A stretch of DNA of 64,000 nucleotides from an uncultured delta proteobacterium (GTDB lineage Bacteria; Desulfobacterota; Binatia; JACPRU01): assembly GCA_963745025.1 (NCBI GenBank), contig CAVUWD010000011.1, positions 128,001-192,000 of the forward strand, read 5' to 3'. The position numbers and the translations under genes were made by a program. The notes under the pieces are model-generated. The model was given only the letters and a program-made list of their open reading frames with translations, was not told the origin of the DNA and made no database searches. Below are positions 1,011-33,674 of the stretch, piece after piece (positions within the stretch are counted from its first letter, which is position 1; the number at the start of each line of letters is the position of its first letter).

Positions 1011-1029
1011 CTCGGCTCTACGGTCCTCG

Positions 1030-2427
1030 CTAGGCGCGGCGATCCTTGCCGCTCACCTGAAACCAGGCGTTGTCGAAAGGCACCTTGCGTTCGAGCAGCA
1101 GCTCACGGCTCTTCGGCACGTAGCCGGTGGCGCGAAACACGGCGTCCTTGCCGACCCCGTCCAAGCGAAAGAGCTCTCCCATCGTGAACTGGTCGCCCTC
1201 GAGCCCGGTCAGCTCGGCGATCGACGTGACGCGCCGGCTGCCGTCCCGTAAACGGCTCAATTGCACGATCAGGCGGATGGCGCTCACCACCTGCTCGCGG
1301 ATCGCGCGCTGCGGGAGATCGGTGCCCGCGAATAGCACCAACGTCTCGAGGCGGCTGAGGGCCTCGCGCGTGGAGTTGGCGTGAATCGTCGACAAGCTCC
1401 CCTCGTGGCCAGTATTCATCGCCTGAAGCATGTCGAGGGCCTCGCCGCCGCGGACTTCACCAATGACGATTCGCTCCGGCCGCATGCGCAGGGCGTTGCG
1501 GACCAAGTCACGAATCGTCACGGCCCCCTCGCCGCCCGGGTCGGGCGGCCGCGCCTCGAGCGGCACGACGTGACGCTGCGGAAGTCGCAGCTCGGCGGCA
1601 TCTTCGATCGTGATGATCCGCTCTTCGGGACCGATGAAGCCGGCGAGCGCGCCCAAGAGCGTCGTCTTTCCCGAGCCGGTGCCGCCGGAGATCAGCATCG
1701 AGAGCCGTCCGGTGACCGCCGAGCGCAGAAATTCCAGCATCGGGCGGCTGAGCGCGCCGATCGACACGAGCTGCTCGGCGGACAGCCGATGGCGGGGAAA
1801 ACGGCGGACCGTCAGGCACGCGCCGCGGAGCGAGAGCGGCGGCATGATCGCGTTGATTCGCGAGCCGTCGCGTAACCGTGCGTCGAGCATCGGGCTGCGC
1901 GGGTCGATCTCGCGCCCCACCGCGGCCGCCATCGCGACGATCAGATCCGTGAGCTCCTTCTCCGAACCGAACGTCACCTCGCTCAGCTCGATCCGGCCGC
2001 CCCGTTCGATGAAGACCTCGTGCGGGCCGTTGACCATGACCTCGCTGATCGTTTCGTCGGCGAAGAGCGGTTCGAGGCGCCCCAGGTCGAACCCGAGAGA
2101 CGCTGGCCCGGCCGGCGGAGGAGCGGGGCTCGCTTCTGCCGCAGGGGCGACCCGCTGGAGCGTGAACGGCCCGATGCACAAATCCTCCCCCGGAGGGAAT
2201 TCGACGCGACCGGTCACCGGCCTTCCGCCGAGGGTCGAGCCATTGGTACTGTCCAGGTCTTCGACGAAGACCTTGCCGTTCTCGACGCTCAGTCGCGCGT
2301 GGCGGCGGGAAACCTTGGAGTCCTGCAAGACGACGTCGCAGTCGGCATGCTTGCCGAAGAAGATCTCGGGCCGGTCGATCTCGACCCGCTGCGGCTCCTC
2401 GCCCTCGCGCCGAATCGTGAGGATCAC
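1030..2427 (-). CDS. cpaF: FHA-domain CpaF/TadA family pilus ATPase (paralog 3 in operon order)
   Basis: N-terminal FHA (FGK..DCDVVL.D..VSRRHA...DLDSTNGS); Walker [10 protein letters not shown], Asp box IEDAAEL, Walker B IVIGEVRG, His box [15 protein letters not shown]. Confidence 0.92.
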
Positions 2428-2433
2428 GCCGCC

Positions 2434-3933
2434 CTACCGCACCGCTTTCTGCGGCTGTACCGTGAGCGCGCGGTCGCGGTAACGGGCGGGAACTTTGTCC
2501 ATGTCGTCGAGAACGACCGTCCGCCCGTTGTCATCCTTGTAGATGATGAGCAGCGTATCGGTGCCCGCCATTCCCGCCTTCAGGTGCGCTTCGGTTTCGC
2601 GCAGGCGTGCCTCGATGTCCGGATCCTGGCCTTCCGCGGCTCGCGAAGCTTTGCGGTAATTCTCGAGCGCCACCCAGAGGTCCCCACCGTCGCGGGCCTG
2701 GTCGCCGCGGTCGACGTAGTACGAGAGCGCCTTCTGAACGCGGTCGCGCGCCGCTGGGCTCAACGGGTCGATCTTCAGCGCCTCGCGATAACGCAGCAGC
2801 GCATTGTTACCGGCGGGCTCGACGACCTGGCCCTTCTGGTAGAGCTCGTCGCCCCTCGCGATGGCCGCGTTCACCTGGTCCTCGAGCGCCTTCCGCTTCG
2901 CCAGCTCGGTCCGGCGCTGTTCCTCCTCCCGTGCGCGACGCTGCTTGTCGCGCTCGAGGTCGATCGTTTTCATCCCTGCGAGCGCCTTCTCGTTTCCGGG
3001 GTCGAGCGCCAGGACCTCGTTGAACTTCGCGAAGGCGTTCTCGGCGTCGGGTTGATCCGTCGGCGCAAACAGCCGTCCCTCCTTCATCAAGACCTCGCCG
3101 GCGGCGAGCAACGCATCGACCTGCTTCCTGCGCTGCTCCTGTGAGCTCGTCTTGGGAGACGGCGGCTGAACCACGACCTTTTGCGGAGCACCGCTCGGCC
3201 AAAGGAGCAGAGCGAGCACGACGACCACGATCCCGCCGATCGCGAGGTAGAGGCGGCGCTCGGGCGCGAGCAAGCGAGTGAGCGCGGAAGCGGCGAACTC
3301 CTCGTCGGAGAACTCGGAAGAAAAGACTTCGCCGCTGCGCACCAACCGCAGCACGATGTCGCCGATCTTCACGAGATCGCCGACTCTCATCTTCGCGGAG
3401 CTCACCGTGCGGCCTCCGGAAAAAGCGATCGATCCTGCGGCGCCGAGGTTTTGGATCTCGAAATCGTCGCCGCGCCGGGTGAGCTTCGCGTGTGCCCCTT
3501 CGATGCCCGCAATCACGATGTGGCACGTCGGATTCGAGCCGATCAGCGCACCGTCTTCGGGAATCACGAAGCGCCGCCCGCGGCTCTGACCGGAGAGACA
3601 CACGATCTCGTAACCACTCGCCGCGGTCGGAGCGGCTTCGGCCGTCCCCGTCGCGCGGACCATCGTACGTTCACCCTCCGTCGCTCCGCTGGAGGGCGCA
3701 CCCCCCCGCCGAGGGGCGACGAGCGTCTTGTCTGCGTCGGCAGCGGGAGCCGGGGCGGTCGGCGTCTTTGGCGGCCGAGTCATGACGACCGTCTTGTCGC
3801 CCGCAGCGGGCGCCTCGGTGGGGCGGGCGCCGGCCGTTTGCGCCGGGTCGGATGCCGAAGACGGCCCGGGCCTCGGAATGTCGACTTTCGTCTTGTCCGG
3901 ATCGAAGTCCGGCGCCTTCTTCTCGTCTGCCAA
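2434..3933 (-). CDS. FHA-domain bitopic membrane protein with TPR-like repeats and C-terminal DUF4124-like segment
   Basis: Pro/Thr-rich N-terminus, degenerate FHA (LIGSNPTCHIVI...AHAKL...IQNLG), one TM helix, helical repeats (ALDPGNEKA, KIDPLSPAA), C-terminal YKDDNGRTVVLDDMDKVPARYR. TTG start preceded by AGGAG. Confidence 0.75.
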   Translation of the reverse strand: MADEKKAPDFDPDKTKVDIPRPGPSSASDPAQTAGARPTEAPAAGDKTVVMTRPPKTPTAPAPAADADKTLVAPRRGGAPSSGATEGERTMVRATGTAEAAPTAASGYEIVCLSGQSRGRRFVIPEDGALIGSNPTCHIVIAGIEGAHAKLTRRGDDFEIQNLGAAGSIAFSGGRTVSSAKMRVGDLVKIGDIVLRLVRSGEVFSSEFSDEEFAASALTRLLAPERRLYLAIGGIVVVVLALLLWPSGAPQKVVVQPPSPKTSSQEQRRKQVDALLAAGEVLMKEGRLFAPTDQPDAENAFAKFNEVLALDPGNEKALAGMKTIDLERDKQRRAREEEQRRTELAKRKALEDQVNAAIARGDELYQKGQVVEPAGNNALLRYREALKIDPLSPAARDRVQKALSYYVDRGDQARDGGDLWVALENYRKASRAAEGQDPDIEARLRETEAHLKAGMAGTDTLLIIYKDDNGRTVVLDDMDKVPARYRDRALTVQPQKAVR

Positions 3934-3977
3934 AACGATTCTCCTCGCGATCGGCTGCGAACCGCCCCCGAGCGCAA

Positions 3978-5555
3978 TCAGTGTTCTACGTGCTTTTGCT
4001 CGAGGGCTTCTCTTGCGCCCGGTCGCTTCGCGAGCTCGACGAGCGACGGCGGCAGGACGAGGCCGGCGAGCTCGATCTCCTCCAGAAAGGTCGGCAGATT
4101 TCCAACCGCTCGGTGCTCTCCGACAATGCGATCTTTGTCGGTGCCGGTGCGGACGAAGCGGTAGATGTCCTGCACCCGGTATCGTCCCTCGGGCGAGAGT
4201 TCCAGCACCTCCGAAATGTGCGTGATCTTACGCGTACCGTCCGGCAGCCGCGCCGCTTGGATGATGAGGTCGATCGCCGTCGAGACCTGCTCGCGGATCG
4301 CCACGATCGGCAAATCGAGACCCGAGAACAGCGTCAACGTCTCGAGCCGCGACAGTGTCTGGAGCGGCGACGAAGCGTGAATCGTCGCGAGCGAGCCGGA
4401 GTGGCCGGTGTTCATCGCCTGCAGGAGATCGAGCGCCTCGCCGCCGCGCACTTCGCCGACGACGATGCGATCGGGCCGCAGACGCAGAGAGGCTTTGACG
4501 AGGTCGCGTAGGGTCACCTCGCCCTTCCCGTGCTTGTCCGGCGGCTTGGCTTCCAGGGGCAATACGTGCTCTTGCTGGAGCTGGAGCTCCGCGGAGTCCT
4601 CGATCACGAGGATCCGTTGATCGTTCGGGATCAGCGCCGAGACCACGTTCAGAAGACTCGTCTTTCCCGAGCTCGTGCCCCCCGACACGATGATGTTCTT
4701 GCGGAGCTTCACGCAGATATCGAGAAAGGAGACGATTTCCTCGCTGAGCGAGCCGAAGCGGATGAGATCCGTCAGCGTCAGGCGCTCCTTGGAGAACTTG
4801 CGGATCGAGATGCACGGCCCTTTTCGCGAGCACGGCGGCAGCACGACCGCGACGCGCGATCCGTCGGGCAGGCGCGCGTCCATGTACGGGGTCTCCTCGT
4901 TCACCCGCTTGCCGACGTACTGCGCGATGTTCATGACCGCCGCGCGCAGCCCTTCCTCAGCAAAATGGACGGGCGCCCGCTCGAGCCTTCCCTTGCGCTC
5001 GATGAAGATCTCTCGCGGTCCGTTGACCAGGATTTCCGAGACCGCGGCGTCGTCGACGTACGGCCAGACCGGAGCCAGGAAGCTCTGCATCGAGGCCCAG
5101 AACATCTTCGCCTTCTTGGCCTCGTCGGTCTCAGTGTCCTTGCCGTCGGCTTTCGGGGCGGCCTCCACTTTCGCGGAGGAGGGCGCTGCGGTGAGGGACG
5201 AGCCGTCGGACTTCTTGTTCTTCGCCGGTTCTGCCGCCGGCACGGCTGCCGTCGCCTTCTTCGCCTCCGCGATTTCGACCCGCACCTCGAAGTCGCCGAT
5301 TTGAATGACGTCTCCCGCGCGGACCGGCTGAAGTCCCGAAACCGGCGCTCCTCCGAGATAGGTGCCGTTGGTGCTCTTCAGATCCTCGACGAGAAAGCCG
5401 CCATTCTCCTCGACGAGGCGGGCATGACGGCGCGACACCTTGGCGCTGGCCAGAACGACGTCGCAATCCGAATGTTTTCCGAGAAACACCTCGGGCTTCG
5501 GGATCTCGACCCGGCGGGGCTCCGGGTTCTTCGGGTCTGACACGAGTAGAATCAT
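3978..5555 (-). CDS. cpaF: FHA-domain CpaF/TadA family pilus ATPase (paralog 2)
   Basis: FHA (LGKHSDCDVVL...VSRRHA...DLKSTNGT); Walker A GGTSSGKTS, IEDSAEL, IVVGEVRG, MNTGHSGSLATIHA. Confidence 0.92.
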   Translation of the reverse strand: MILLVSDPKNPEPRRVEIPKPEVFLGKHSDCDVVLASAKVSRRHARLVEENGGFLVEDLKSTNGTYLGGAPVSGLQPVRAGDVIQIGDFEVRVEIAEAKKATAAVPAAEPAKNKKSDGSSLTAAPSSAKVEAAPKADGKDTETDEAKKAKMFWASMQSFLAPVWPYVDDAAVSEILVNGPREIFIERKGRLERAPVHFAEEGLRAAVMNIAQYVGKRVNEETPYMDARLPDGSRVAVVLPPCSRKGPCISIRKFSKERLTLTDLIRFGSLSEEIVSFLDICVKLRKNIIVSGGTSSGKTSLLNVVSALIPNDQRILVIEDSAELQLQQEHVLPLEAKPPDKHGKGEVTLRDLVKASLRLRPDRIVVGEVRGGEALDLLQAMNTGHSGSLATIHASSPLQTLSRLETLTLFSGLDLPIVAIREQVSTAIDLIIQAARLPDGTRKITHISEVLELSPEGRYRVQDIYRFVRTGTDKDRIVGEHRAVGNLPTFLEEIELAGLVLPPSLVELAKRPGAREALEQKHVEH

Positions 5556-6964
5556 CGTAGGCGCCCTAGCTCCTCGAGCGTTGCATTATACGCGGCCAGC
5601 GCCCCTCCTCCCAACCGCTGGACCCGGCTTTGGATGATTCGATAGCGGGGATCGGTCGGCTCTGGAAACGTCTTCGCGGCGATGGCCAGTGCGCGACCCT
5701 GCTCGGCTGCCGCTCCTTGCTTGCCCGCGAGCGTGGCCGCGTTCAGCTGCATACGCAAGTCGCGCTCGAGATCCTGCGCGAGCGATTGCATCGCTTTAGT
5801 GACCGCCACAAGGGCCTTTGCGGCTTGGCCCGCGTCCACGTCGGCGCGCGCGGCATCGATCAGCTCGCCGAGCTTCTGCTGCTGGGAAGGGACGGTGGTC
5901 TCAGGGAGAGGGATGAGGAGGAAGCTTTTTCCCGACGTCTTCATGAGACCGAAGGCGGAAACGCGGAGTGAACTCAATAGGTTATAGCGGTTCGAGAGAT
6001 CGTACTGCAGGCGATCGGAGATCGTGCGCTGGGCGGCGAGGTCGTCGGAGAGCTGCGCGGGAGAGGACGCGGCGGTGGGCAGACGCACCATCCACATGCT
6101 TCCCAGCCCCCACGACTTGACGCTCTTCGGGTCGACGCTACCATCGCTCGGCGCGTAGCCGAGGTTGTCGAACGTCAGGAGGAGGGTCGCGTCTTGACCG
6201 AAAGCCTTCGGGAGCAAGAGCAGCTCGTACGATTGCTGCTTCCCGTCCTTCGGCAGCGTCGCAACTGCCCGGTCTCCGACACGAATCTCGACGCCCGACG
6301 GCGCCATGACCGTGAAGTCGATCGCGAGACCGTCGAGCTGGGCGGGAACCGCGAAGACGGCTTTATCGAGGTGGCTTCGGTCCCGCGGCAGGTACCCGAA
6401 GACCGCGTCGTAATTGACGCTCAATCGCCCACTCGCCTGCGGAGGCAGCTGCTCCGCCTCGGGCCACAGTAGGATCGCCGCGGCGACCACGAGGACGGCG
6501 ACAAGCAGAAGTTGGCTGCGACGCGATCCGAGTCCGACCTTCCCGAGCAGCCCGCCTGCCGGCGCCGGCTTCGCACCCGGTGACTTCTGGGCCTTTGCGG
6601 CCGCCTCGCGCTCGACCGCCCGCTTCTGCGCTCCCTTTTTGGCCACGATCTCGAAGCGCAGAATCGTATTGCCGATCTTGAACTCGTCTCCCGAGGCGAG
6701 CGGCTCGGCATTCGCGCCTACTTTGAAACCCATCTTCTCGACGCCGGTACTGCTGCCGGCATCGGCGAGCCAGCATCCGTCAGCGCGGATGTCGATCCGG
6801 GCGTGGTGACGCGAGACCGTGGGATCGCTGATCACGATGTCATTGTCCACCGCGCGGCCGACGCCGATCGAACGAACGCCTGGCTTGAACGGGATTTTCG
6901 AACCGGGGTTCGCTCCCTTCACCACCGAGACGCGGAATTCTTCCAGATCCTCGAACGCGAGCAT
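5552..6964 (-). CDS. FHA-domain bitopic membrane protein with periplasmic domain of unknown function
   Basis: FHA (VGRAVDNDIVISDPTVSRHHA...DAGSSTG), one TM (LLLVAVLVVAAAILLW); stop overlaps the next start by 4 bp. Confidence 0.8.
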   Translation of the reverse strand: MLAFEDLEEFRVSVVKGANPGSKIPFKPGVRSIGVGRAVDNDIVISDPTVSRHHARIDIRADGCWLADAGSSTGVEKMGFKVGANAEPLASGDEFKIGNTILRFEIVAKKGAQKRAVEREAAAKAQKSPGAKPAPAGGLLGKVGLGSRRSQLLLVAVLVVAAAILLWPEAEQLPPQASGRLSVNYDAVFGYLPRDRSHLDKAVFAVPAQLDGLAIDFTVMAPSGVEIRVGDRAVATLPKDGKQQSYELLLLPKAFGQDATLLLTFDNLGYAPSDGSVDPKSVKSWGLGSMWMVRLPTAASSPAQLSDDLAAQRTISDRLQYDLSNRYNLLSSLRVSAFGLMKTSGKSFLLIPLPETTVPSQQQKLGELIDAARADVDAGQAAKALVAVTKAMQSLAQDLERDLRMQLNAATLAGKQGAAAEQGRALAIAAKTFPEPTDPRYRIIQSRVQRLGGGALAAYNATLEELGRLR

Positions 6965-6980
6965 CCTCTCCCCGCTACGC

Positions 6981-7880
6981 TCAGAAGCCTCCAGTCAACT
7001 GGTAACGCAGATAAATCGGCACGAATAGAACGATGAACGACGCCGGAAAGATGCACGCGATGAGTGGCGCCATGAGCTTGACGGGCACCTTGCCGGCCGC
7101 CTCCTCGGCGAGCGTCCACCGCTTGACCCGCATCTGATCGGCCATGGTGCGCAGCGTCGCCGCGACGCTCGCGCCGAGCTGCTCGGCTTGAAGCAGCGCC
7201 AGGACGAAGCTGCGAATCTCGGTGAGATCCACGCGGTCGGCGAGGGCGCGAAGCGAATCGCCGCGCGGCTTTCCGAGCGTGACCTCTTGGTGCGCGATCC
7301 GGAACTCGTCGATGAGCGGACCGGTTGGACCCTTGTCGACGACCGTCGCCATGGCGGAGGCGAAATCGAGGCCCGCCTCCGTCGAAAGAATGAGTAGATC
7401 CAGCGCATACGGCAGGTCCCGGAAGATCCGTCGCATGCGCCGGTTGAGGACCTGGTTCAGCCGCATGACCGGATAGAAGAATCCGAAGAGAGTGATCGGC
7501 CCGACGATCGTCCAGTTGATCTCTCCCGAAATCTGCACCGACAGCGCGTAGCCGAGGGCGAAGCCGATCACCACCCCGACGTAGCGGAGCGCCAGGAATT
7601 CGGGGACCGTCATCCCGAAGGGGCGACCCGCTTGCCTGAGCTTCTTGTCGAGTGCCTGGCCCGAGGCACGGTTCAGGGCGTTCTTGTGAAGCGGCGCGAG
7701 AGCGCGCGCGATCGGCAGCACAAGACGCATGACGGCGTTCGCGATCGGGATCTCGCGATCCGCAGCCTCGCTCACGACTTCCTCGGTCGGGCGCGCAGAC
7801 AGGACCAAGAAGCTCACCAGAAAGACGGCGAGCCCGCCGCACGCAAGCGCCAAGTAGAGCATCATTTCGCCGGACTCCAT
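6981..7880 (-). CDS. tadC: TadC inner-membrane platform protein (T2SS-F family)
   Basis: DLPYALDLLILSTEAGLDF...AEEAAGKVPVKLMAPLIACIFPA pattern; follows tadB. Confidence 0.9.
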   Translation of the reverse strand: MESGEMMLYLALACGGLAVFLVSFLVLSARPTEEVVSEAADREIPIANAVMRLVLPIARALAPLHKNALNRASGQALDKKLRQAGRPFGMTVPEFLALRYVGVVIGFALGYALSVQISGEINWTIVGPITLFGFFYPVMRLNQVLNRRMRRIFRDLPYALDLLILSTEAGLDFASAMATVVDKGPTGPLIDEFRIAHQEVTLGKPRGDSLRALADRVDLTEIRSFVLALLQAEQLGASVAATLRTMADQMRVKRWTLAEEAAGKVPVKLMAPLIACIFPASFIVLFVPIYLRYQLTGGF

Positions 7881-7987
7881 CGGCCCTCCTCACTCAGCGC
7901 GGCGTCGCCGCAACCGCAAGGCGCGACGGGGACGATGCCTCGTATCTCATACATTCGTCTAAGAACGCGAATTCCTACCGTACTAAC

Positions 7988-8839: not shown

Positions 8840-8842
8840 CGC

Positions 8843-10549
8843 TCACGCCTCCTCGGACTGGAAGATCGTCAAATCGGGCTGAATGCCTCGCTGGCGAAGG
8901 CGCTCGTAGAAGCGCGGAATGTAACCGGTCGGCACGTGACGGCCGACCACCTTGCCCTTTGCGTCGAACCCGTCCTGCTTGAAGAAGAAGATGTCCTGGA
9001 TCTGGACCTGGTCACTGTCGATGCCGGTGACTTCGGAGATCGAGGTGACTTTGCGGGTACCGTCCGAGAAGCGCGTCTGCTGCAGAATGATGTGCACGGC
9101 GGAGGAGATCTGATCGCGGATCGCCCGAACCGGCAGGTCCATTCCCGCCATCAGCACGAGGGTCTCGAGCCGCGCGACGGCGTCCCGAGGCGAGTTCGCG
9201 TGCAGCGTGGTCATCGAGCCGTCGTGGCCGGTGTTCATCGCTTGCAGCATGTCGAGCGCCTCGCCGCTGCGGCATTCGCCGACGATGATGCGGTCGGGCC
9301 GCATGCGCAGCGAGTTGCGCACGAGGTCGCGGATCGTGATCGCGCCCACCCCCTCGAGGTTCGGCGGCCGCGTCTCGAGCGACACGACGTGGTCCTGCTG
9401 AAGCTTCAGCTCGGCCGAGTCCTCGACGGTGACGACCCGTTCGTCGTTCGGGATGAAATTCGAGAGCACGTTCAGCAGCGTCGTCTTTCCGGACCCCGTA
9501 CCGCCCGAGACGACCGTGTTCTGACGCAGCTCGACGGCGAGCTTCAGGAAGTTCGCCATCCCACGCGTGAGCGCAGCGAATCGCACCAGGTCGTCGATCT
9601 GGAGCGGAACCTTGTTGAATTTGCGGATGGTGATCGACGGGCCCTTCAGCGCAAGCGGCGGGATGATCGCGTTCACGCGCGACCCGTCCTTCAGCCTCGC
9701 ATCGACCATCGGCGAGGATTCGTCGATGCGCCGGCCGATCGCGGACACGATGCGCTCGATTGCGGCGAGCACCGCTTGGTTGCTGGTGAACTTTTTCTCG
9801 GAGAGCACGAGCTTTCCGCGCTGCTCGATGTAGATCTGGTCGAATCGATTGACCATGATCTCGGTCACTTCGTCGTCCGCGAGAAGGTCTTCGAGCGGGC
9901 CGAGACCGAGCGCCTCGTCGATGATCTCCTTGACGAGGCTTTCTCGGGAGAGGCCCGGCGGGATCTCCCAGGCGAACTCGCGGAGGATGTTCTCGACCGC
10001 CGCGCGCGTCTGCGCCCGGATGTCCGCGTCCTTGAGCTTGCTCAGGTCGACCCAGCGGAGGTCGAGGAACTCGAGCAGTCGCTTGTGCAGGCGGCCCTTG
10101 ATCTCGCGGACAGGGTCGCCACCGGGCTCGGCGGCCGTCGCGGCTGCCGCCGGCGTCGCCGCTTCGGCAGGTCGAGCCCCGATGAGGGTCACGTCGCCCT
10201 CCGCAGCTGCGGCGGCTCCGCCAGCGACGACGAGCCGTAGGCGAAATTCCCCGATCTCGAAGCAATCGCCGTCCCGGACCGGCGTCGGCTGCGCGATTAC
10301 GGCCCCGTTCAGAACGGTGCCGTTCGTGCTCTTCGAGTCTTCGAGCATCCACGAACCGTCGTTTCGGAACAAACGCGCATGGCGCGACGACACCGCAGCG
10401 CTCGCGAGGACCAGATCGTTGGTCGGCGCACGGCCGATCGAAATTTCACTGCTTTCGAAGCACTGCGACCGAACCGGACTTCCTGCTTCGTCTTCGACCC
10501 GTAGCTCTATCATCCGTGTTGACCCGTCCCGCCCGTCATTTCGGTTCAC
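8843..10549 (-). CDS. cpaF: FHA-domain CpaF/TadA family pilus ATPase (paralog 1, full length; alternative start 10513)
   Basis: FHA ([11 protein letters not shown]...VSSRHA...DSKSTNGT), CpaF N-terminal helical part ([26 protein letters not shown]), [31 protein letters not shown]. Confidence 0.93.
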
Positions 10550-11348
10550 CCGCCTGTTCAGTCGAGGCCGCCTTCGACACGACCTCGCCCAACGCGACCG
10601 GCTGACGGGAAAGCTCTCGGAGAGTGGTCGCGTCGCCCGCGATGTACGCGCGATCGCCCGGCCGAAGGTTCTTCGGGTTTCGCAGCAGTGCGGAAAGCTT
10701 TCCGAGGTTCTGTGCCCAGATGATCAACTTCGCCTGGTCCGGGGTGAGCAGCAGCGTGATCGAGCTGTAGTTCGCCCGCGGACTCGACCCGAACGCGCCG
10801 GTGTAGAGCACGTAGACGTTGTCGAGCAGCGGAGTGGTGACGACCTGTTGTGTCGCCACACCACCCTTGCCGCCGGGCTGAGCTTGCTGCACACTCTGGT
10901 AGGTAAGGAGGAGGTCGATCCGGTCGCCTGCGCGGATCGCGCCTTCGAGCGAGGTTTCGTTGGTCGTCACCAGCGTGAACAGGCGGTCGTCGGTGCGCGG
11001 ATCGAGCTTCTCGGAAGCGCGAGCCATGCCCGCCGCCCCGGTGACGAACTGCGTGGCGAGGACGTAGTCGCCTTCAGCGGCTTCCGAGCCGAGCCGCTGG
11101 CCGATGTAGTTGCCACGCGCCGACCAATCGACCGCGAACTTGGGGATCGAGTTCGCGACCTTCGCGGCCGCCATCACGTCCTCCTCCGCGAGCAGCGCGC
11201 CGGGGCGCAGATCGCGGCGGGCGATCATGACTTGCCGCCTCACTGGCTCGAAGCTAGCCCGAAGATCGCTGATGTACAGGTTCATCAGCACTACGGCCGC
11301 GATCGCGGCGGCAATCGACACCAGGATCGGGATCCGACTCTGCATCAC
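10536..11348 (-). CDS. cpaB: Flp pilus assembly protein CpaB/RcpC (SAF domain)
   Basis: N-terminal TM, SAF (VMIARRDLRPGALL), GAIRAGDRIDLL, LLDNVYVL, ITLLLTPDQA...GKLSALLRNP. Confidence 0.88.
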   Translation of the reverse strand: MMQSRIPILVSIAAAIAAVVLMNLYISDLRASFEPVRRQVMIARRDLRPGALLAEEDVMAAAKVANSIPKFAVDWSARGNYIGQRLGSEAAEGDYVLATQFVTGAAGMARASEKLDPRTDDRLFTLVTTNETSLEGAIRAGDRIDLLLTYQSVQQAQPGGKGGVATQQVVTTPLLDNVYVLYTGAFGSSPRANYSSITLLLTPDQAKLIIWAQNLGKLSALLRNPKNLRPGDRAYIAGDATTLRELSRQPVALGEVVSKAASTEQAGEPK

Positions 11349-11395
11349 TTCCTCCCCTCTTTACCGCAAATCCCTGTGCTCGTCCGCCGTATCCC

Positions 11396-11632
11396 TCAAG
11401 GGATCGGCAGGGCCACGAAGAAGTAAATCTCGAGCAAGTAGCGCCCGATCGCCGCATGCATCAGGCTGCCGATGCCGATGAGACCGAGCGTTGCGAGCAC
11501 GACCGTGATCACGTACTCGACCATGACTTGCCCGCTTTGCTCGCCGAACCGCTCCCTGTCTTGCCGAGCTTCCAAGCCGAAACCTTCATACAAAGGACGG
11601 AGCACGCGCTGCAACCATCTGCGTCGGCTCAT
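11396..11632 (-). CDS. Small Flp/TadE-like minor pilin
   Basis: Class III signal-like motif SG|QVMVEY followed by a hydrophobic helix. Confidence 0.7.
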   Translation of the reverse strand: MSRRRWLQRVLRPLYEGFGLEARQDRERFGEQSGQVMVEYVITVVLATLGLIGIGSLMHAAIGRYLLEIYFFVALPIP

Positions 11633-11635
11633 GGC

Positions 11636-12445
11636 TCAAGACCTCCCCGCGGCGTAGGTGCGTGTGACGAGAACCGCATTCCCGCGTTCACGCGGTTCCG
11701 GCAGGATGAGGATGGAGCATTCTTCGTCTTCCTTAGCGAAAAACAGCGTCGTGAACTTGGAGGTAAGGTCGGCGGGCGGCACCAATTGTTCCCAGCCCCG
11801 CGCCGACATTTCGCGAAGGTAGAAATCCGTGACCCAATCGCGCGAGTCATCGGTGGTGTAGCTCAGCGTCTCGTTGTGCGGGCCCTCGACCGAGCTGATC
11901 AGAATCCGCGCTCGCGCGCCGGGAAGCTCCGGAATTCCCGGCAGCATGGGTTGGAATCCGCGTTTGAGCTCACTGAGGTTTCGTTGCGTCAAGCGGATCG
12001 CCGGCAGACCGTTTCGCAGCGAGGTCGCGGCCACTGCCAGCATCACCTTCGTCCGCGGATGGATTGCGACCACCGTATCTTCTCCGCCGATCGTCTTTCG
12101 CCGAGCGCGGTAGCCTACCTTTCGAAGCGCCGACTCAAACTCGCGAAGCTTCGCCGCTGGATCGGCCACCCCATACGTATTGAAGCGAACCAGCATGCCG
12201 TTCACCCGAAACTGCCCGCGACCCGAGAGCTTCGGACGCATGGCTGGGTTCGCTTCGATACCGAGACCGCGCTCCGCATCGTCGACCAGCGTATCGCCCG
12301 TGCGCACCGCCGCCGCGGAACTCGGACGTTCCCGGCCGAGCAGCGCGTAGCCGACGAACAACAGCGCGAACCCGGCGGCAACGACCGCGTGAAACCACCG
12401 TGGCATCGACCCACCGAGAATTCTCGATTTCTCTTCGAGCTTCAT
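11636..12445 (-). CDS. Hypothetical membrane-anchored periplasmic protein in Tad operon
   Basis: N-terminal TM; start overlaps the upstream stop by 1 bp; function not recognised. Confidence 0.65.
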   Translation of the reverse strand: MKLEEKSRILGGSMPRWFHAVVAAGFALLFVGYALLGRERPSSAAAVRTGDTLVDDAERGLGIEANPAMRPKLSGRGQFRVNGMLVRFNTYGVADPAAKLREFESALRKVGYRARRKTIGGEDTVVAIHPRTKVMLAVAATSLRNGLPAIRLTQRNLSELKRGFQPMLPGIPELPGARARILISSVEGPHNETLSYTTDDSRDWVTDFYLREMSARGWEQLVPPADLTSKFTTLFFAKEDEECSILILPEPRERGNAVLVTRTYAAGRS

Positions 12446-13419
12446 CAGTGACGCTCCGGGAATTCCTTCAACGTTCCGTCGGGAAGGTGGAAGCCCGCAT
12501 TCGTGTCCAAGACGCTATCGATAGCCGAGAAGACTCCGCCAATCCCTGAAAACATGCATTTCCCGGTGTTGCCTAGGAACGAGACAGCGGCGCCGACTCC
12601 AGGGACCAAGTTCGGATCGCCCGTGGGTAGAAACCACAGGGGGAAGATGTGCCCGCTGGTATCGCAAAGACTGTTCACGCCCCCGACCAATTGCTCGTAT
12701 TCGGTCTTGTCGTTCGTACGCACGATCAGCAAGGGGTGACTGAGGATGCTCGAGAACTGCACGATGTCCGTCGGCCGGATCAGATGAAAGTAGTTGATGC
12801 CGAAGGTCTTGTACTCGACCCGTGCCGTGAAGATCGAGCTGTCGGCTTCGTGGTCCCAATTCGTCTCGCGGGCGAAGAGATCCTGGAGGAAGAAACCGGG
12901 CACCCCGGCGACACCGCCGAGGAACGAGCCGAGTCCGCTCAATGCGGAGTTCGCCTGGCCGCCGGCCCCGTCGATCAGGGTCACCGCGGTAGCGGCCGCC
13001 GTCGCGATGGGCACGATGACGTCCGCGACGGCCCGCGGCGCAACGGACGTAATGCCCAACGCGGCGGTGACGTCGTTGTCGTAGTCGGCCACTTTGCGCG
13101 TTGCCGCGTCGGCCTCGGCGTTCAGCAGGAAGCGGCCGATGCCGGCCTTCTTCTTCAACGTCGTATCGAGGTTCGCGTCGCTCGCGGACGATGGGAGGGC
13201 GTGCACTGCGCTGCCCTGAGTGCCGTCGTCGCGCAGGTACCACGAGCTCTCCCACGTCGCGAACCGTGCGCCTTCGATCGCTCGAGCCCGCATCGAGACC
13301 AGCTCGTAGAAGTAGTCGAGGCCGAGAAATACCATCAGCAGCACGGGAAGCATGACGACCGTTTCGACGAGCGACTGGCCGCGATCCGGCAAAAGTCGCT
13401 TGGCGGCGTTCAAGGGCAT
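12445..13419 (-). CDS. TadE/TadF-like pseudopilin
   Basis: ATG at 13419 preceded by GAGG; RG|QSLVETVVMLPVLLMVFLG...ARAIEGARFATWE. Confidence 0.8.
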   Translation of the reverse strand: MPLNAAKRLLPDRGQSLVETVVMLPVLLMVFLGLDYFYELVSMRARAIEGARFATWESSWYLRDDGTQGSAVHALPSSASDANLDTTLKKKAGIGRFLLNAEADAATRKVADYDNDVTAALGITSVAPRAVADVIVPIATAAATAVTLIDGAGGQANSALSGLGSFLGGVAGVPGFFLQDLFARETNWDHEADSSIFTARVEYKTFGINYFHLIRPTDIVQFSSILSHPLLIVRTNDKTEYEQLVGGVNSLCDTSGHIFPLWFLPTGDPNLVPGVGAAVSFLGNTGKCMFSGIGGVFSAIDSVLDTNAGFHLPDGTLKEFPERH

Positions 13420-13429
13420 GGCATCACCT

Positions 13430-15127
13430 CTAGTGAAGCAGCTCGATGCCGCTGTTCTTGTCTGCAAGCCGCTCGAGCCTCCCCGCCCAGAAGGGATTGA
13501 AGATCGTCTCCTTGTCGAACTTCTTGTCCTTTCGATTCTGGGTGAAATACACGCGAGCGAACGCATACGCTTCCATCGACGGCGTGAACCCGGTGACCTC
13601 CGTTATTGGCGGCGGGAGGTTCGTGTCGAGGCCTTCGGTAAGGCCCAATCCGCTGAACAGCGGCAGAGACTTGCTCGGCTTGCTCAGGTAGACGAAGACT
13701 CGCGGACCTTCGACTCGTTTGCCGTTGTCGTTGTCGTCTCCGTCGTCCTTGTAAATCGTAACCTTCATGTCCTTCAGCTTGGTACTGAGCTTCGCTTCGG
13801 TTCGGCAGTCGTGAATGAATTCTTCGAAGCCCTGTACCAGCGCCAATCCCGGAATGCATCCCGGATCGCCGATGGCCTTGGCGATGAAATCCCCAGTCGG
13901 GTTCTCGGTGCGATCCGTGCCGTCGACGTCCGAGACGTCCTGCGGGTGCAACGTATCGAACGACACCGGCTGCGGATCATCGTTGGGAATCGGGTCAGAG
14001 TCCGGAATGATGCTGTCCCAACGGTGCTGAATGTCGGCGCCGCTGTTGAACTGGTCGTCGCTGTAGTGGCCCGCGCTCTCGCTGAAGATGTTCTGAAAAC
14101 CGGTGACCGGGCACGTGATGCCTCCGACCGAGATGCTGATTCCGGAGTGATCGAGCTGATAGATCGTGTCCTTGAGGGACGTGTTATCGCCGCCGCGCAC
14201 GATCATCTGGGTTTTGCCGTTCGGAAGGGTCCTTTCGCCTCCCGTCTCCCACGGGCCGCCCGTCGGGTTCTCCTCTCCGGTAATGTGGTCGAATCCCGGC
14301 CCGTCGAAACCCTCCGGCCCGATCGTCAGGCTGAGACACGGCAGGTGGCTCAGCGCATCACCGATCACCGGGATCAGGTTCGCGAAGTCGCGGAAGCTTC
14401 CTCCATTCGAGAACGCGTTCAGCGACCGCTCGACCGTCAATCGTAGACCATTGTCCTTGTCCGTACCGGTCCAGTCGCGGCGGTCGGAGAGCTCCTGAAA
14501 GTTGAAGACTTCCGATCCCACCCAGTACTGAAAATTCGTGTCCACTCCGGCGGCGATCTTCTGGATGAGCTGCGCCCGTCCGGCTTGAGTCGTGAGGTAC
14601 AACGCCTCTTCGAACGCGCTCAGCGCCGAGTTGTAGGCCTGCAGGTACGGAGAGATGCCCAAGACGGCATCGGACGCGCCTTGGTTGACGATGTGAACGG
14701 CGACGTGGAGCGCCTCCTCGCCAACCAGCAACGGGCAAGCGACGATATCGATGATCGGGATGTCGCAACCGAGCTGAAGAACCGCTTGCAGCTCGGCCAA
14801 GAAGCCGTCGAGCGCATCCGCGAACGAATAGAAGCCGGTGACGAGCGCGATCGTATCGTAGTTCGCCACCATGGCGCGCGTGGTGTACGCGGCGAGGTTC
14901 ATGTACCGCGCTTCCCAGATCGCCGCCGAGTAGGCGGCGTTGTCGGCCGCGTTCTGGATCTTCATCTTCTCGGTCGTCATCGTGCCGACGTTGTAGACCG
15001 AGAGTCCGGCCAGCGTGAGCGGGATCAGGAAGATGAGGAACATCACGAGCATCTGGCCCCGCTGGCTCGCGAGCTGCGAGAGACGCTGGCGTACCCGGCT
15101 ATGACGTTCCATCTCGGTTCTCTCCAT
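13430..15127 (-). CDS. TadG-like large minor pilin (Tad N-terminal domain); start may be 15145, 15127 or 15112
   Basis: RG|QMLVMFLIFL...KIQNAADNAAYSAA motif of the Tad domain; large Asp/Gly-rich C-terminal region with several Cys. Confidence 0.8.
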   Translation of the reverse strand: MERTEMERHSRVRQRLSQLASQRGQMLVMFLIFLIPLTLAGLSVYNVGTMTTEKMKIQNAADNAAYSAAIWEARYMNLAAYTTRAMVANYDTIALVTGFYSFADALDGFLAELQAVLQLGCDIPIIDIVACPLLVGEEALHVAVHIVNQGASDAVLGISPYLQAYNSALSAFEEALYLTTQAGRAQLIQKIAAGVDTNFQYWVGSEVFNFQELSDRRDWTGTDKDNGLRLTVERSLNAFSNGGSFRDFANLIPVIGDALSHLPCLSLTIGPEGFDGPGFDHITGEENPTGGPWETGGERTLPNGKTQMIVRGGDNTSLKDTIYQLDHSGISISVGGITCPVTGFQNIFSESAGHYSDDQFNSGADIQHRWDSIIPDSDPIPNDDPQPVSFDTLHPQDVSDVDGTDRTENPTGDFIAKAIGDPGCIPGLALVQGFEEFIHDCRTEAKLSTKLKDMKVTIYKDDGDDNDNGKRVEGPRVFVYLSKPSKSLPLFSGLGLTEGLDTNLPPPITEVTGFTPSMEAYAFARVYFTQNRKDKKFDKETIFNPFWAGRLERLADKNSGIELLH

Positions 15128-16629
15128 CACCCTTTTCGGTCCCATTGCATCCGCATGACGAAGGTCGCGCGAATCGGCACGCGGAAGATCAGGAACTCGC
15201 CGAGCGATTGCCGGATGCTGTTGTCTCCCGACTTCTGAATGAAGACCGTCTCGCCTCTACCCTCGTCGGGCGTGGCAACGTCCCCCGGCGCGGTCTCGTA
15301 TTGGGTCGGTATGACCTTGATGCCGGAAAAGATGGGCGCGATGGTTCCCGCCAAGCCACTCAAGCCGAACGTCGCGAAGCCCACTTGCGAGAATGCGAAG
15401 CCCGTCGCCCAGACGGGGATCATCTTGTTCATGTCGGGAAGCTTCTTCTGCATGTCGGCCACGGTGGCGGAGGAGCCCTCGAGGTTGAGAGCGATCTTGT
15501 AGAGCTTCGGGCGGGCAGTCGCCGTGATGATCCGATTGACGAACGGGATGACCAGCGGGTAGCGCCAGGTCACCAGCACTTTGATGAGGTTGTCTTCGGA
15601 GTCTTCCTTCGGATCGTCGAACGCGATCTTCTTCGGCCACTTCTTGATAATCGCCTTCTTGATCGCCTTGTCGTCGTCCAAATCCGCTTTCGGATCGACG
15701 AACTGCACGTCGAGGCAATCGACCAGGTTCAGATCGTCGTCGATCGTCACGCCGATGGACTCGTAGAGAGCCACCGCGGCGCGGCCCTGAAAAACGCTGC
15801 CGAGAACGGCCAAATCCGTGGCCGGACTGGGAGGGATGGGACCGGCCGTCCAGGCGAGGGTTTGGAGGGTTTTGGCAAAGATTAGGAGGTTCTTCGCGAC
15901 TGCTGGCCGTTTTTGTTCGTCGGGATCGAGGCGTCCCTGGATCGCCGGGATGACGGGCAGGATCGTTAGGAAGGCCGCACGCTTCGCCCGCTTCTGCATC
16001 AAGTCCAGGTCGACCGGGTCTTCGGATGTAGGCGACGAGTCCGCGCGCGCGACGATCGCCGCACGGGCGGCGTTGAACGCGGCGAGCTTCACCAGGCTCC
16101 GCGCGTTGTAGATGAGAGTGATTTGGAAGATCCCCAAGATGAGCACGATGCCGACGAGCGAGGCGAAGAAGAACTCGAGCATCGCCTGGCCGTTCTCCGA
16201 CTTGAGACGTGCTTCGCGCTCCCGTAAGGCCTTCTCCTTCGCCTGCGTCTTGCGAATCGCCTTCTGCATCCGCGTCAAGTAGAGCATTGCCATTACCGCG
16301 ACGAGAGCGAGGATCCAGATCGCGGTGCTCCAGCTGATCGAGAAGTTGAGCGCTCTCGGGACAGCGGCAGCGCCGCCCGCGCCCGGGTCACCCTGCGAAG
16401 CCGCGGGAGCTTCCGTCGACTCCTGAGGCGCCGGCGGGGACCCCTCCTTTTCCTGGCCGCCACCCGTCCTGATGCCGCTGCCCGGAGACGTCGTCTCGAG
16501 CTTTTCCGTGGCGTGATCGAACCTCCCCCTCAATGCTCCGCCGAACCGGAAGACGACGAGGAGTAGGCCGAGCGAGATCAGGACCGCGGTCAGGACGTAC
16601 TCGGTCGCCTGCCCGGATTGAGCGCGCAC
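15127..16629 (-). CDS. Fusion protein: N-terminal Flp-like pilin, TM, then TadE-like pseudopilin
   Basis: N-terminal SGQATEYVLTAVL...RFGGALRGRF and internal ENG|QAMLEFF...LAAFNAARAAIV (site near 16190). Confidence 0.75.
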   Translation of the reverse strand: MRAQSGQATEYVLTAVLISLGLLLVVFRFGGALRGRFDHATEKLETTSPGSGIRTGGGQEKEGSPPAPQESTEAPAASQGDPGAGGAAAVPRALNFSISWSTAIWILALVAVMAMLYLTRMQKAIRKTQAKEKALREREARLKSENGQAMLEFFFASLVGIVLILGIFQITLIYNARSLVKLAAFNAARAAIVARADSSPTSEDPVDLDLMQKRAKRAAFLTILPVIPAIQGRLDPDEQKRPAVAKNLLIFAKTLQTLAWTAGPIPPSPATDLAVLGSVFQGRAAVALYESIGVTIDDDLNLVDCLDVQFVDPKADLDDDKAIKKAIIKKWPKKIAFDDPKEDSEDNLIKVLVTWRYPLVIPFVNRIITATARPKLYKIALNLEGSSATVADMQKKLPDMNKMIPVWATGFAFSQVGFATFGLSGLAGTIAPIFSGIKVIPTQYETAPGDVATPDEGRGETVFIQKSGDNSIRQSLGEFLIFRVPIRATFVMRMQWDRKG

Positions 16630-16728
16630 GCCGCCTTTGCCTGATATGAGGAAGCTAGCTGTGGGAGGGGCAAGGAGGCCGATCCGTGTTCGCGAAGGGC
16701 CCCACTTGCCCCCTTCCCCACGGCGGTT

Positions 16729-16995
16729 CTACTTTTGTTCTCCCAGGTCGAGTTTTCCGCTGTCGGCCTTGTCCGTCTGGCCCCCTTCCTTTTCAGGATC
16801 GAGCTTCTGGACGTTGGTGTCGACCACATTCACGTTGCTCACTGCCTCGACGGCCCCGCCGAAGCGGTTCCGCAGCATGCCGCCGAAGCGGTTGACCGCA
16901 AACATCACCACGAGCGCGACGAGGATCGCGATGATGATGTACTCGGTCATCCCTTGACCGCGCTGGTTCCGAAGAAACTTCGCGAATCGATTCAT
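16729..16995 (-). CDS. flp: Flp family type IV (Tad) pilin, probable major pilin
   Basis: MNRFAKFLRNQRG|QGMTEYIIIAILVAL; GGAGG 9 nt upstream of ATG; first gene of operon. Confidence 0.9.
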   Translation of the reverse strand: MNRFAKFLRNQRGQGMTEYIIIAILVALVVMFAVNRFGGMLRNRFGGAVEAVSNVNVVDTNVQKLDPEKEGGQTDKADSGKLDLGEQK

Positions 16996-17071
16996 ATGCA
17001 TTGACCTCCCTGGCTCACTGCTTAAGTCGAAATCCGCCGGCCGAGTCTCTCGGCGGCACCCCATCCATTAC

Positions 17072-17088
17072 AGCATCGCTCGTACCAA
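17072..17088 (-). promoter_or_regulatory. Putative sigma-54 (-24/-12) promoter of the flp/tad operon
   Basis: TTGGTACGAGCGATGCT: GG-N10-GC, close to TGGCACG-N4-TTGCW, about 77 bp upstream of flp. Confidence 0.6.
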
Positions 17089-17187
17089 CCTTTGAGGTCA
17101 CGAATCCAAAGGGTTTTCCCAGAATCCCGCTTTGGTTCCCCGTATCGGCTCTGATACCAGTGTATCCTTCCTGCAATCGACTCTGAC

Positions 17188-23171: not shown

Positions 23172-23277
23172 CGGCTTCGGCCGTCCGCTACCCAGCGCGC
23201 CGGCTAGACTAAGCCACACTCCGCGGGCACCCTCAAGCGCCCGCGCTCAGCACCTCTGGAGCGGCGGCCGGGGGCGC

Positions 23278-25458: not shown

Positions 25459-25460
25459 CG

Positions 25461-33644: not shown

Positions 33645-33674
33645 CTAGCAAACCGTTCGGTTAGTGGCTGGACT

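Follow-up and report, generated by a model that had tools for sequence, protein, structure and literature searches.

A Kil-like Tad pilus operon with three FHA-fused CpaF-type ATPases in an uncultured Binatia lineage

Introduction

Tad pili are the textbook type IV filament in which one ATPase drives both directions. Why, then, should a single Tad operon carry three motor genes? The operon that raises this question lies in a window of 64,000 nucleotides, the whole stretch of DNA analysed here, from contig CAVUWD010000011.1 of an uncultured delta proteobacterium (Desulfobacterota; Binatia; G000:C11:128001-192000; GC 0.61–0.71). The source genome, G000, comprises 5.65 Mb in 20 contigs and is 92.65% complete, with 7.6% contamination. 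The three CpaF-type ATPases of the operon, designated ATP1, ATP2 and ATP3, each carry an FHA domain at the N-terminus, and the three-helix bundle of CpaF is missing from two of them. A preliminary description made from the sequence had likened the locus to the Kil system, with which Myxococcus kills its prey on contact. We read it as a Kil-type Tad (type IVc) pilus operon with three motor genes, ATP1 being the main motor and ATP2 and ATP3 accessory ones, and assign this reading a probability of roughly 0.55. FHA-CpaF proteins and the Kil gene order are already known.

Results

Three FHA-fused ATPases in one operon

The Tad/Flp operon forms one tightly packed unit of about 16 kb on the minus strand (window 1030–17064), with 13 closely spaced open reading frames (ORFs), all read in that direction; it was annotated by Pfam and NCBIfam profile searches, transmembrane (TM) prediction and direct reading of the sequence. 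ATP1 (8843–10549; 568 aa, with Met13 as the likely start) matches Pfam T2SSE at 1.1e-60 and FHA at 4.7e-18. It is followed by a TadB-type platform protein (7988–8839; 283 aa; T2SSF 3.1e-17; TM helices) and a TadC-type platform protein (6981–7880; 299 aa; T2SSF 1.6e-14), and then by two gene pairs, in each of which a non-ATPase FHA gene stands directly upstream of an ATPase gene. FHA-TM470 (5552–6964; 470 aa; FHA 3.1e-13) precedes ATP2 (3978–5555; 525 aa; T2SSE 5.1e-56, FHA 2e-18), its stop overlapping the ATP2 start as ATGA, and FHA-TPR499 (2434–3933; 499 aa; FHA 3.9e-4, Yop-YscD_cpl 6.3e-10) precedes ATP3 (1030–2427; 465 aa; T2SSE 6.5e-57, FHA 3.4e-16), whose GTG start lies 6 nt past the FHA-TPR499 stop. 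Each of the two FHA-TM proteins has one TM helix. Among 17 T2SSE matches genome-wide, ATP1, ATP2 and ATP3 are the only CpaF-like genes. The layout given in the preliminary description, with five FHA proteins in the operon and each downstream ATPase placed after an FHA-TM gene, is thus borne out by the Pfam matches, the single TM helices and the two gene junctions.

Walker A, Walker B, the His box and an arginine of the CpaF R347 type are conserved in ATP1–3 and throughout the family orthologs examined. All three window ATPases have the Asp box as well; the narrow pattern used for it missed three ATP1 orthologs. Pfam and the motif check therefore agree with the earlier claim of three CpaF/TadA paralogs with N-terminal FHA domains and intact motifs, and, judged by sequence, the three motors appear catalytically intact and under purifying selection.

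The three proteins differ in build. Against the solved Caulobacter crescentus CpaF (9e24_A, 501 aa), ATP1 aligns over residues 74–493 (E 8.6e-126), bundle included. The ATP2 alignment begins at residue 150 (E 2.6e-94) and that of ATP3 at residue 148, the start of the N-terminal domain (NTD; E 1.5e-103), so that the bundle region, CpaF residues 74–147, is covered by ATP1 alone; the absence of this helical region from the two downstream paralogs had been noted before and is confirmed. ATP1 consists of FHA, linker, three-helix bundle, NTD and ATPase domain, as in class III CpaF and KilF. In ATP2, a low-complexity linker (about 60 residues) and one short helix connect the FHA domain to the NTD and ATPase domain; in ATP3 the connection is a 14-residue linker. 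Over the whole length, ATP2 and ATP3 are 46% and 49% identical to ATP1; the ATPase cores of the three are 48–53% identical pairwise. The FHA domains of ATP2 and ATP3 share 53.7% identity with each other, compared with 44.2% and 36.2% with that of ATP1.

In the portion of PMC12019362 (Nat Commun 2025) available to us, the order FHA, disordered region, three-helix bundle (3HB), NTD and ATPase domain (CAD) defines class III CpaF, mostly from betaproteobacteria, and 3HB-NTD-CAD is given as the minimum CpaF architecture; the bundle is predicted to contact the platform proteins, and CpaF expression is abolished when it is deleted. Since ATP1 has the class III build, it is of a described type, and the earlier statement that canonical Tad ATPases lack FHA domains proves too simple. 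ATP2 and ATP3, in contrast, have the FHA domain without the bundle, and neither fits class I, II or III.

Conservation and selection in the family

The preliminary description had allowed that the triplication might be confined to one strain or might be under relaxed selection. The first possibility does not hold. At least three CpaF-like matches are present in 6 of the 8 family genomes: three each in G000 (the window's genome), G001, G002, G003 and G005, and six in G006. The other two have one match each, a non-FHA CpaF in G004 (65% complete) and an ATP3 ortholog in G007, a fragmented genome that is 79% complete. The order of the 13 genes from the pilins to ATP3 is identical in all four relatives' loci fetched. 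G001 and G003 supplied one locus each and G006 two, of which that on C15 stops at the contig end within ATP3. Identity to the window proteins in this family is 72–74% for ATP1, 67–77% for ATP2, 59–65% for ATP3, 63–66% for TadB, 53–62% for TadC, 45–53% for FHA-TPR499 and 40–46% for FHA-TM470. The two operon copies of G006, L083 (on C6) and L084 (on C15), are diverged whole operons with ATP2 genes about 70% identical to each other, and in the C6 copy ATP1 is in pieces with a stop; the operon may be truly duplicated, or else G006 may be a mixed bin (completeness 78%, contamination 3%).

ATP3 as query matched 19 of 41 relatives at E <= 1e-40. Outside the family, three ATPases in one locus were found neither in 80 named loci, taken as the best of at least 601 (two ATPase cores occur in 5 of them), nor in 400 other genomes of the window's phylum (three candidates scored per genome), 61 Myxococcota genomes or 61 Bdellovibrionota genomes. 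A search of a representative library with ATP3 gave 63922 matches at E <= 1e-3, and P0007, an unnamed protein 61% identical to ATP3, was the sole ortholog-like match beyond the family. Of the metagenome candidates for ATP3, the best 80 of at least 600 were mostly core-only matches at 50–59% identity.

Selection on the three motors was compared by the Nei-Gojobori method (NG86). The ratio of nonsynonymous to synonymous divergence (dN/dS) is 0.20–0.28 for ATP1, 0.15–0.28 for ATP2 and 0.29–0.41 for ATP3; because the dS values (0.6–1.1) are probable underestimates in a genome rich in G and C at third codon positions, these ratios are to be read as relative only. ATP3 has a dN of 0.28–0.31 against 0.16–0.21 for ATP1, a rate about 1.5 times as high. 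Selection is thus purifying overall, although ATP3 evolves faster and its copy in the same-genus genome G001 (L081:3596-4986, G001:C5) is split over three frames, with breaks near residues 100 and 153. That copy, which still keeps all catalytic motifs, is either a recent pseudogene or an assembly error, and the earlier suggestion of relaxed selection may apply to ATP3 to some degree.

These data bear on the possibility that ATP3 is a decaying duplicate and that the working system has two motors. The highest dN and dN/dS of the three, the longest branch in the tree described below, the interrupted G001 frame and the lack of orthologs found beyond the family other than P0007 would all fit decay. 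Against it, the ATP3 frames are intact and their motifs kept in the window, G003, G006 and P0007, the dN/dS of ATP3 is well below 1, and the frameshifts in G001 could be assembly errors; we regard decay as highly improbable. By sequence comparison, ATP3 emerges instead as a faster-evolving, family-restricted, bundle-less paralogue whose FHA domain is nearest that of ATP2, and the three-ATPase arrangement is solidly established as an old, selected feature of one family.

Phylogeny of the ATPases

The main tree was built with IQ-TREE (LG+C20+F+G4, with posterior mean site frequencies) from 81 core sequences; 39 non-FHA rows (Chloroflexota, Bacillota and others), rows with fewer than 300 profile positions and three duplicate loci were left out. 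The family ATP1 clade (support 100/98) lies inside a poorly resolved FHA-CpaF group. Its nearest named rows are KilF-like genes of Citreicoccus and Archangium (path 0.55), and the KilF-type ATPase of Citreicoccus shares 64% identity with ATP1. Constraining ATP1 together with the KilF-like rows gave a tree as good as the free one (difference in log-likelihood, lnL, +0.44; p = 0.519 in the approximately unbiased, AU, test). On whether the ATPases branch with KilF or with adhesion-type CpaF, the grouping of ATP1 with KilF is therefore compatible with the data, while the free tree by itself does not fix the position of ATP1.

Family ATP2 (100/99) falls within a 17-row clade of short ATPases (100/99), which also holds the second ATPases of the two-ATPase tad operons L017, L035, L060, L095 and L097 and all 7 fetched Myxococcota orphan ATPases. 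The "ATP2 type" of short CpaF is a grouping of this analysis and not a named family. In alignment A3, the short-clade members examined all begin with a single helix directly ahead of the NTD. Family ATP3 (100/100) has the longest branch and is sister to the short clade at 95/58. In a quick tree of 88 rows, two Bdellovibrionota orphans group with ATP2 (support 86 in the Shimodaira–Hasegawa-like approximate likelihood ratio test, SH-aLRT), and ATP3, P0007 and P0028, the last another FHA-bearing, bundle-less protein, are sister to the short clade (SH-aLRT 89).

Organisation compared with Kil and other FHA-CpaF loci

According to the accessible parts of Seef et al. 2021 (PMC8460266) and Herrou et al. 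2025 (PMC12075869), kil cluster I encodes KilA, KilC, KilF and KilD, and cluster II encodes the pilins, including the TadE/G/F-like KilM4/N4/L4, together with KilB, KilG and KilH; the system has an excess of FHA proteins, an FHA-fused single ATPase and a secretin without N0 domain, and lysis depends on a type III secretion system that has no needle (T3SS*). The comparison was made through the two Citreicoccus inhibens loci, L003 for cluster I and L109 for cluster II. L003 carries an FHA protein, an A24 peptidase, a secretin, an FHA-ATPase and a two-FHA protein. L109 runs TadE, TadG, TadE, four uncharacterised genes, RcpC, TadB, TadC, a 471-aa FHA protein and a 586-aa protein with FHA and TPR, and both of its FHA proteins have one TM each, as in the window.

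The window operon follows the cluster II order from minor pilins through CpaB, TadB and TadC to two bitopic FHA proteins, one of about 470 aa and one of about 500–590 aa with TPR; FHA-TPR499 has the same build as the FHA+TPR protein that closes cluster II. It shares with Kil the FHA-fused CpaF-type ATPase (KilF) and the absence of a TadZ/CpaE gene from the locus. It differs in that ATP1 is inserted between RcpC and TadB and ATP2 and ATP3 follow the two FHA genes, so that a single operon with three ATPases stands where Kil is split into two clusters with a single ATPase described. Of the 24 named FHA-CpaF loci examined, separate FHA genes lie downstream of the platform genes in 5 (L011, L014, L017, L049 and L060), a KilD-like gene is present in L002 and L003, and 13 of proteobacteria type have no further FHA gene after TadC. 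The Tad-type, FHA-rich, Kil-like organisation of the operon is solid.

The most serious competing explanation is that the operon encodes a Tad pilus of the ordinary kind, for adhesion or surface sensing, and that its motor is a class III FHA-CpaF, the extra ATPases being redundant and the likeness to Kil reflecting common descent. FHA-CpaF is a known architecture, placed mostly in betaproteobacteria by the accessible part of PMC12019362. The ATP1 clade includes loci of Acidithiobacillus, Thauera, Piscinibacter and Variovorax, those of Acidithiobacillus, Thauera and Variovorax being without additional FHA genes, and KilC, KilD and a type III secretion system (T3SS) were not found. Redundant copies, however, would not be expected to hold three distinct architectures over at least four genera at dN/dS 0.15–0.41. 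The ATP2 clade is old, and every genome fetched from the Myxococcota (7 of 7) and the Bdellovibrionota (2 of 2) keeps one orphan member of it; further FHA genes follow TadC here and in Kil-type loci but in none of the 13 proteobacteria-type FHA-CpaF loci. An ordinary pilus with spare motors therefore seems to us unlikely, though it deserves to be kept in view.

Evidence that tells against a Kil-type pilus

The Kil label of the preliminary description holds for the cluster II gene order and for ATP1, whose nearest named relative is KilF of Myxococcaceae, and does not extend to KilC, KilD or the uncharacterised cluster I proteins. Several observations count against a Kil-type pilus with three motors, and we gather them here. 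The first concerns missing parts. Tblastn of the Citreicoccus KilD against the genome returned FHA-domain matches only, and that of KilC only the type II secretion system (T2SS) secretin and PilQ. For the two uncharacterised proteins of kil cluster I there is no counterpart in the genome beyond FHA domains. Neither the CpaC-type secretin N-domain (PF13629) nor FlhA/SctV (PF00771) is matched in the 92.65%-complete genome, the latter leaving no T3SS* partner. The failure to find a secretin for the operon, KilC/KilD or a T3SS weighs against a straightforward Kil equivalent.

The remaining points concern the parts that are present. TadB and TadC are 33–40% identical to their Kil counterparts and 28–38% to those of other tad loci, and so are no closer to Kil. 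The FHA-TM proteins show no detectable similarity to the kil cluster II proteins outside the FHA domain, which was also all that hhalign aligned between alignment A2 and the cluster II FHA protein; beyond that domain the likeness is one of size and topology. The place of ATP1 within the FHA clade rests on backbone supports of 47–58, and the same clade contains many loci of non-predatory Proteobacteria. The origin of ATP3 is ambiguous from its sequence, since forcing ATP3 and ATP1 together lowers lnL by 16.85 and is not rejected (p-AU 0.199), and the broken G001 copy of ATP3 counts here as well. As for phospho-signalling, the operon contains no kinase or phosphatase gene, the nearest lying 20–35 kb away; the FHA domain of FHA-TPR499 is degenerate, with a weak Pfam match; and the FHA domains of ATP2 and ATP3 have G-K where those of ATP1 and FHA-TM470 have G-R. 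The arginine of G-R is usual in FHA domains, where it has a phosphate-binding role.

None of the operon ORFs contains a secretin, an A24 peptidase or a ParA/TadZ (CbiA/ParA) domain, the search for TadZ/CpaE covering the operon. The genome has three PF00263 secretin matches: one T2SS-linked, PilQ and a 214-aa orphan. The orphan (G000:C18:13323-13964, L101:8324-8965; 37 bits) consists of hardly anything but a secretin domain, lies between DsbA and FKBP genes and has no similarity to KilC. Six of the 8 family genomes have it, among them G004, for which no operon was detected, as does 1 of 33 other relatives; it was not found in the two genus-g3 genomes, G003, which has the operon, and G007, which has at least ATP3. 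This loose co-occurrence makes it a weak lead for the missing outer-membrane pore. The single A24 prepilin peptidase of the genome lies elsewhere (C13:76944-77270, within a 293-aa frame) and is the only match, at 30%, of KilA in tblastn against the genome, the operon itself having no KilA counterpart. By analogy, this lone peptidase might serve both pilus systems, as PilD does in Bdellovibrio bacteriovorus according to the available part of a preprint (bioRxiv 10.64898/2026.07.08.737194).

Short ATPases in other genomes

Short ATPases related to ATP2 are not peculiar to the family. Of the 61 Myxococcota genomes sampled, 43 contain CpaF-like matches, 15 of them with two; the short type is the better match in 13 of these 15 and is 51–56% identical to ATP2. 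None of the seven fetched Myxococcota short ATPases adjoins tad genes. In Myxococcaceae (L104:9504-14706, G475; also L092) the orphan, at L104:9504-11279, ends in a long tail rich in proline, about 240 aa in length; an uncharacterised gene comes next, and after it a gene for a 704-aa Ser/Thr kinase. Other Myxococcota orphans are followed by a small uncharacterised gene, a gene for an F5/8-type-C-like protein and one for a giant TPR protein of about 2250 aa. All 61 Bdellovibrionota genomes have CpaF-like matches. In the 31 best rows, each from a different genome, the frames measure 363–418 aa and share 50–58% identity with ATP2, and the two short ATPases fetched are isolated genes beside enolase.

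In five two-ATPase loci (L017, L035, L060, L095 and L097), by contrast, the short ATPase lies within the tad operon, where it follows TadB/TadC and one or more FHA proteins. The module of TadC, FHA protein(s) and short ATPase recurs in L017 and L100. In L100 (G045:C2:10000-29999) the order is secretin, FHA-CpaF, TadB, TadC, FHA, a two-FHA KilD-like protein, PP2C, Ser/Thr kinase and short ATPase, which, to judge from its gene content, is the most complete version of a putative phospho-switch among the loci seen. L097 (G139:C78:1-20000), from the window's phylum, is a tad operon in which TadZ(ParA) is fused to CpaF, as in the TadZA of Bdellovibrio; it also encodes three FHA proteins, of which one has PAS, a TPR protein, a short ATPase of the ATP2 type and, with its gene between those of TadB and TadC, a DPBB protein. 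The ATP2 clade is old and widespread, and the combination of FHA fusion with placement of ATP2 in a tad operon is seen only in the window's family.

The preprint cited above was the only other paper found on tad loci with several ATPases. In its available portion, B. bacteriovorus has TadZ and TadA fused as TadZA, an rcpA2-tadA2 module that predation does not require, and an isolated paralog as its third tadA. Several TadA paralogues per genome are thus found there as in the window, but in Bdellovibrio, as far as that portion goes, they are dispersed, without FHA domains, and the main motor is fused to TadZ. From its isolation, the short gene of the two Bdellovibrionota genomes fetched may correspond to tadA3.

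The orphans invite the suggestion that ATP2, ATP3 and their FHA-TM partners serve another envelope machine or signalling system, such as type IVa (T4a) pili or secretion. Orphan ATP2-type genes do not stand beside tad genes in Myxococcota and Bdellovibrionota, a Ser/Thr kinase lies downstream of the Myxococcaceae orphan, and pilMNOPQ genes are also present in the window. Yet five independent two-ATPase loci have their short ATPase gene within the tad operon itself, downstream of TadB/TadC, and family ATP2 is translationally coupled to genes with kil cluster II counterparts. We therefore consider service to another machine very unlikely.

The orphans bear equally on the idea that ATP1–3 co-assemble as one hetero-hexamer, in which ATP1 bundles would grip the platform and ATP2 and ATP3 would add FHA inputs. 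Co-transcription with translational coupling and the retention of the subunit-interface arginine and all motifs in all three proteins would suit this arrangement, as would natural chains with two or three CpaF-type cores. Such chains were seen in P0001 (1156 aa) and P0002 (1605 aa), each with three T2SSE CpaF-type cores, and in P0003–P0006, P0008, P0009 and P0011, each with two; these may be genuine motor subunits joined covalently, or else read-throughs produced by gene calling. The window cores, on the other hand, are only 48–53% identical, and the ATP2-type genes elsewhere are unlinked orphans, which fits a self-sufficient homo-hexamer. The hetero-hexamer, proposed as one option in the preliminary description, is in our judgement quite unlikely.

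The FHA-TM proteins

FHA-TM470 has a cytoplasmic FHA domain (residues 14–105), a TM helix (147–173) and, in an AlphaFold2 model, a periplasmic part made of a beta-sandwich (181–295) and a helical bundle (302–469). The model was built from a 9-sequence alignment and scores 77 for the predicted local distance difference test (pLDDT) and 0.58 for the predicted template modelling score (pTM). In a search of 5.8 billion sequences the periplasmic part was common to only 5 proteins, and a search of the ESM Atlas gave no usable match. The lists from structure searches with Foldseek and VIA were filled by FHA domains; for the periplasmic part, the best matches, BcsB (Z 7.8) and four-helix-bundle fusions (Z 7.3–7.7), were within the noise range of the tool. 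FHA-TPR499 has a disordered N-terminus, the FHA domain (113–199), a TM helix (225–251) and a periplasmic TPR-like region. A cytoplasmic FHA domain joined through one TM helix to a periplasmic domain is also the build of SctD/YscD of the T3SS, TagH/Fha of the type VI secretion system and GltG of gliding motility, and SctD (3.9e-5), TagH and GltG gave weak NCBIfam matches over the FHA-TM part, all scoring well under the cutoffs for their families.

The pilin end of the operon and the rest of the window

The remaining operon genes, upstream of ATP1, are those of pilins and pilus assembly. The first ORF (16729–17064; 111 aa) encodes a Flp-type prepilin (Pfam Flp_Fap 6e-8, 32.8 bits against a cutoff of 32.2; TM 36–65). 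Its short leader reads ...RGQG, followed by MTEYIIIA, and agrees with the G/xxxxEY processing motif of Flp-type prepilins; the internal ATG at 16995, where the preliminary description ended the operon, is a plausible true start. The next ORF (15127–16629; 500 aa) has a Flp-like N-terminus (8–43) and a TadE domain (147–189), both below the Pfam cutoff, and is either a fusion or two genes read as one. Its orthologs in L081–L084 align from about residue 136–147, and it matches the TadE-like minor pilin at the head of kil cluster II (L109 18930-19937). A large TadG-like minor pilin (13430–15145; 571 aa; Pfam Tad PF13400 7e-10) has family orthologs at 35–40% identity and a weak match to the TadG-like gene of cluster II. 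The TadE/TadF-like minor pilin after it (12445–13566; 373-aa ORF; Pfam TadE 1e-3) contains ...RGQSLVETV, has family orthologs and probably starts near residue 50. A conserved protein of 269 aa with one N-terminal TM helix (11636–12445; TM 17–38) occupies the slot where tad loci usually have the secretin; it matched no Pfam or NCBIfam family, and orthologs at 32–38% identity stand in the same place in L081–L084. CpaB/RcpC (10536–11348; Pfam RcpC 3.8e-13; NCBIfam TIGR03177 pilus_cpaB 87.9 bits, cutoff 71) completes the operon.

Over window positions 1–17600, promoter-like sites (2, against 1.8 expected) and terminator-like sites (11, against 12.5 expected) were at chance level. The 22 sequencing runs listed for this DNA include no RNA run on record; the best DNA runs share 0.31 (bog) and 0.20 (wetland) of words with it.

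Two multi-pass membrane proteins flank the pilin end: a 758-aa ORF on the plus strand (17331–19607), whose C-terminal part gives a sub-threshold match to a methyltransferase domain (PF13649, E 0.13), and a protein of 415 aa on the minus strand (19718–20965). Both recur by the operon in relatives, and no tie to the pilus was found. Further off, the kinase nearest to the operon is a Ser/Thr kinase with two PEGA domains (37292–39313), about 20 kb away, for which no link to the operon was shown. A cluster at 43957–52704 contains CsgG-domain/TPR proteins (43957–45915, minus strand; 48541–50481, with AhpC and FlgT_C domains; 50465–51244), a trypsin-TPR protein (45998–47341), a PP2C phosphatase (51245–51976) and, outside the operon, a sixth FHA gene (about 51973–52704); it may be another phospho-regulated envelope module. 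The stretches 54057–63218 and 21825–34292 hold pilM, pilO and pilQ (AMIN domain) beside aroK, aroC and aroB, with genes for squalene-hopene cyclase, squalene/phytoene synthase, mevalonate diphosphate decarboxylase and biotin carboxylase, an ordinary housekeeping context.

Discussion

A family-conserved operon has three motif-intact CpaF-type motors in one unit, two of them bundle-less and each of these paired with an FHA-TM protein. Our functional model draws on architecture, gene order and the literature on the bundle. ATP1 would be the main motor, its three-helix bundle docking on TadB/TadC so that the pilus is polymerised. ATP2 and ATP3 would be unable to dock in this way and may form alternative or accessory hexamers, for retraction or for switching of state. 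They could be recruited through contacts between FHA domains and phosphothreonine, with the paired FHA-TM proteins acting as scaffolds or sensors.

In T4a pili, the assembly ATPase PilB is long, with extra N-terminal domains, and PilT and PilU are shorter and lack them. The same pattern of one long and two short ATPases is found here, and it serves as a working analogy for a division of labour. T4a PilT belongs to another ATPase branch, however, whereas ATP2 and ATP3 derive from CpaF (46–53% identical to ATP1). Short bundle-less CpaFs might serve Kil-type Tad pili as second motors in their own right, which retract the pilus or switch its state, and be a convergent counterpart of PilT in a class of pili credited with one bifunctional ATPase; we advance this as a speculative proposal that is unlikely to hold. 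The Kil pilus itself extends and retracts with KilF as the sole ATPase named in the available part of PMC12075869.

Whether the pilus is used to kill is a separate matter. Contact-dependent killing as in Myxococcus is suggested by analogy, and we hold it tentatively, as a doubtful but real prospect; adhesion or surface sensing is at least as likely. A predatory use is possible, its basis being the resemblance to Kil. The operon may flag uncultured contact-dependent predators, and the secretin, KilC/KilD and T3SS that were not found call for caution here.

The finding extends the Kil-type gene organisation to a lineage outside the Myxococcota and Bdellovibrionota samples. Those two phylum samples of 61 genomes each, and a class sample of 61 centred on a 'Nitrospirales' MAG, have no genome in common with the 432 sampled around the window. 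It hints that Tad pili can use separate specialised motors, the bundle thought indispensable being absent from two of the three, and it provides a testable lead on how FHA/phosphothreonine signalling could choose between motors. Its most useful by-product is an uncharacterised orphan ATPase of predatory phyla that is linked to Tad/Kil machinery; the role of these conserved short ATPases is a second testable lead, for which M. xanthus and B. bacteriovorus are tractable hosts. If our proposal is true, the window's family preserves or has re-created the linkage, with the same operon, an FHA fusion and pairing with FHA-TM scaffolds, and what the unlinked short ATPases do in the Myxococcota and Bdellovibrionota that were sampled could be read from it, perhaps also for the uncharacterised tadA3 of B. 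bacteriovorus. The Kil pilus with which Myxococcus kills its prey would then also use a second, overlooked motor.

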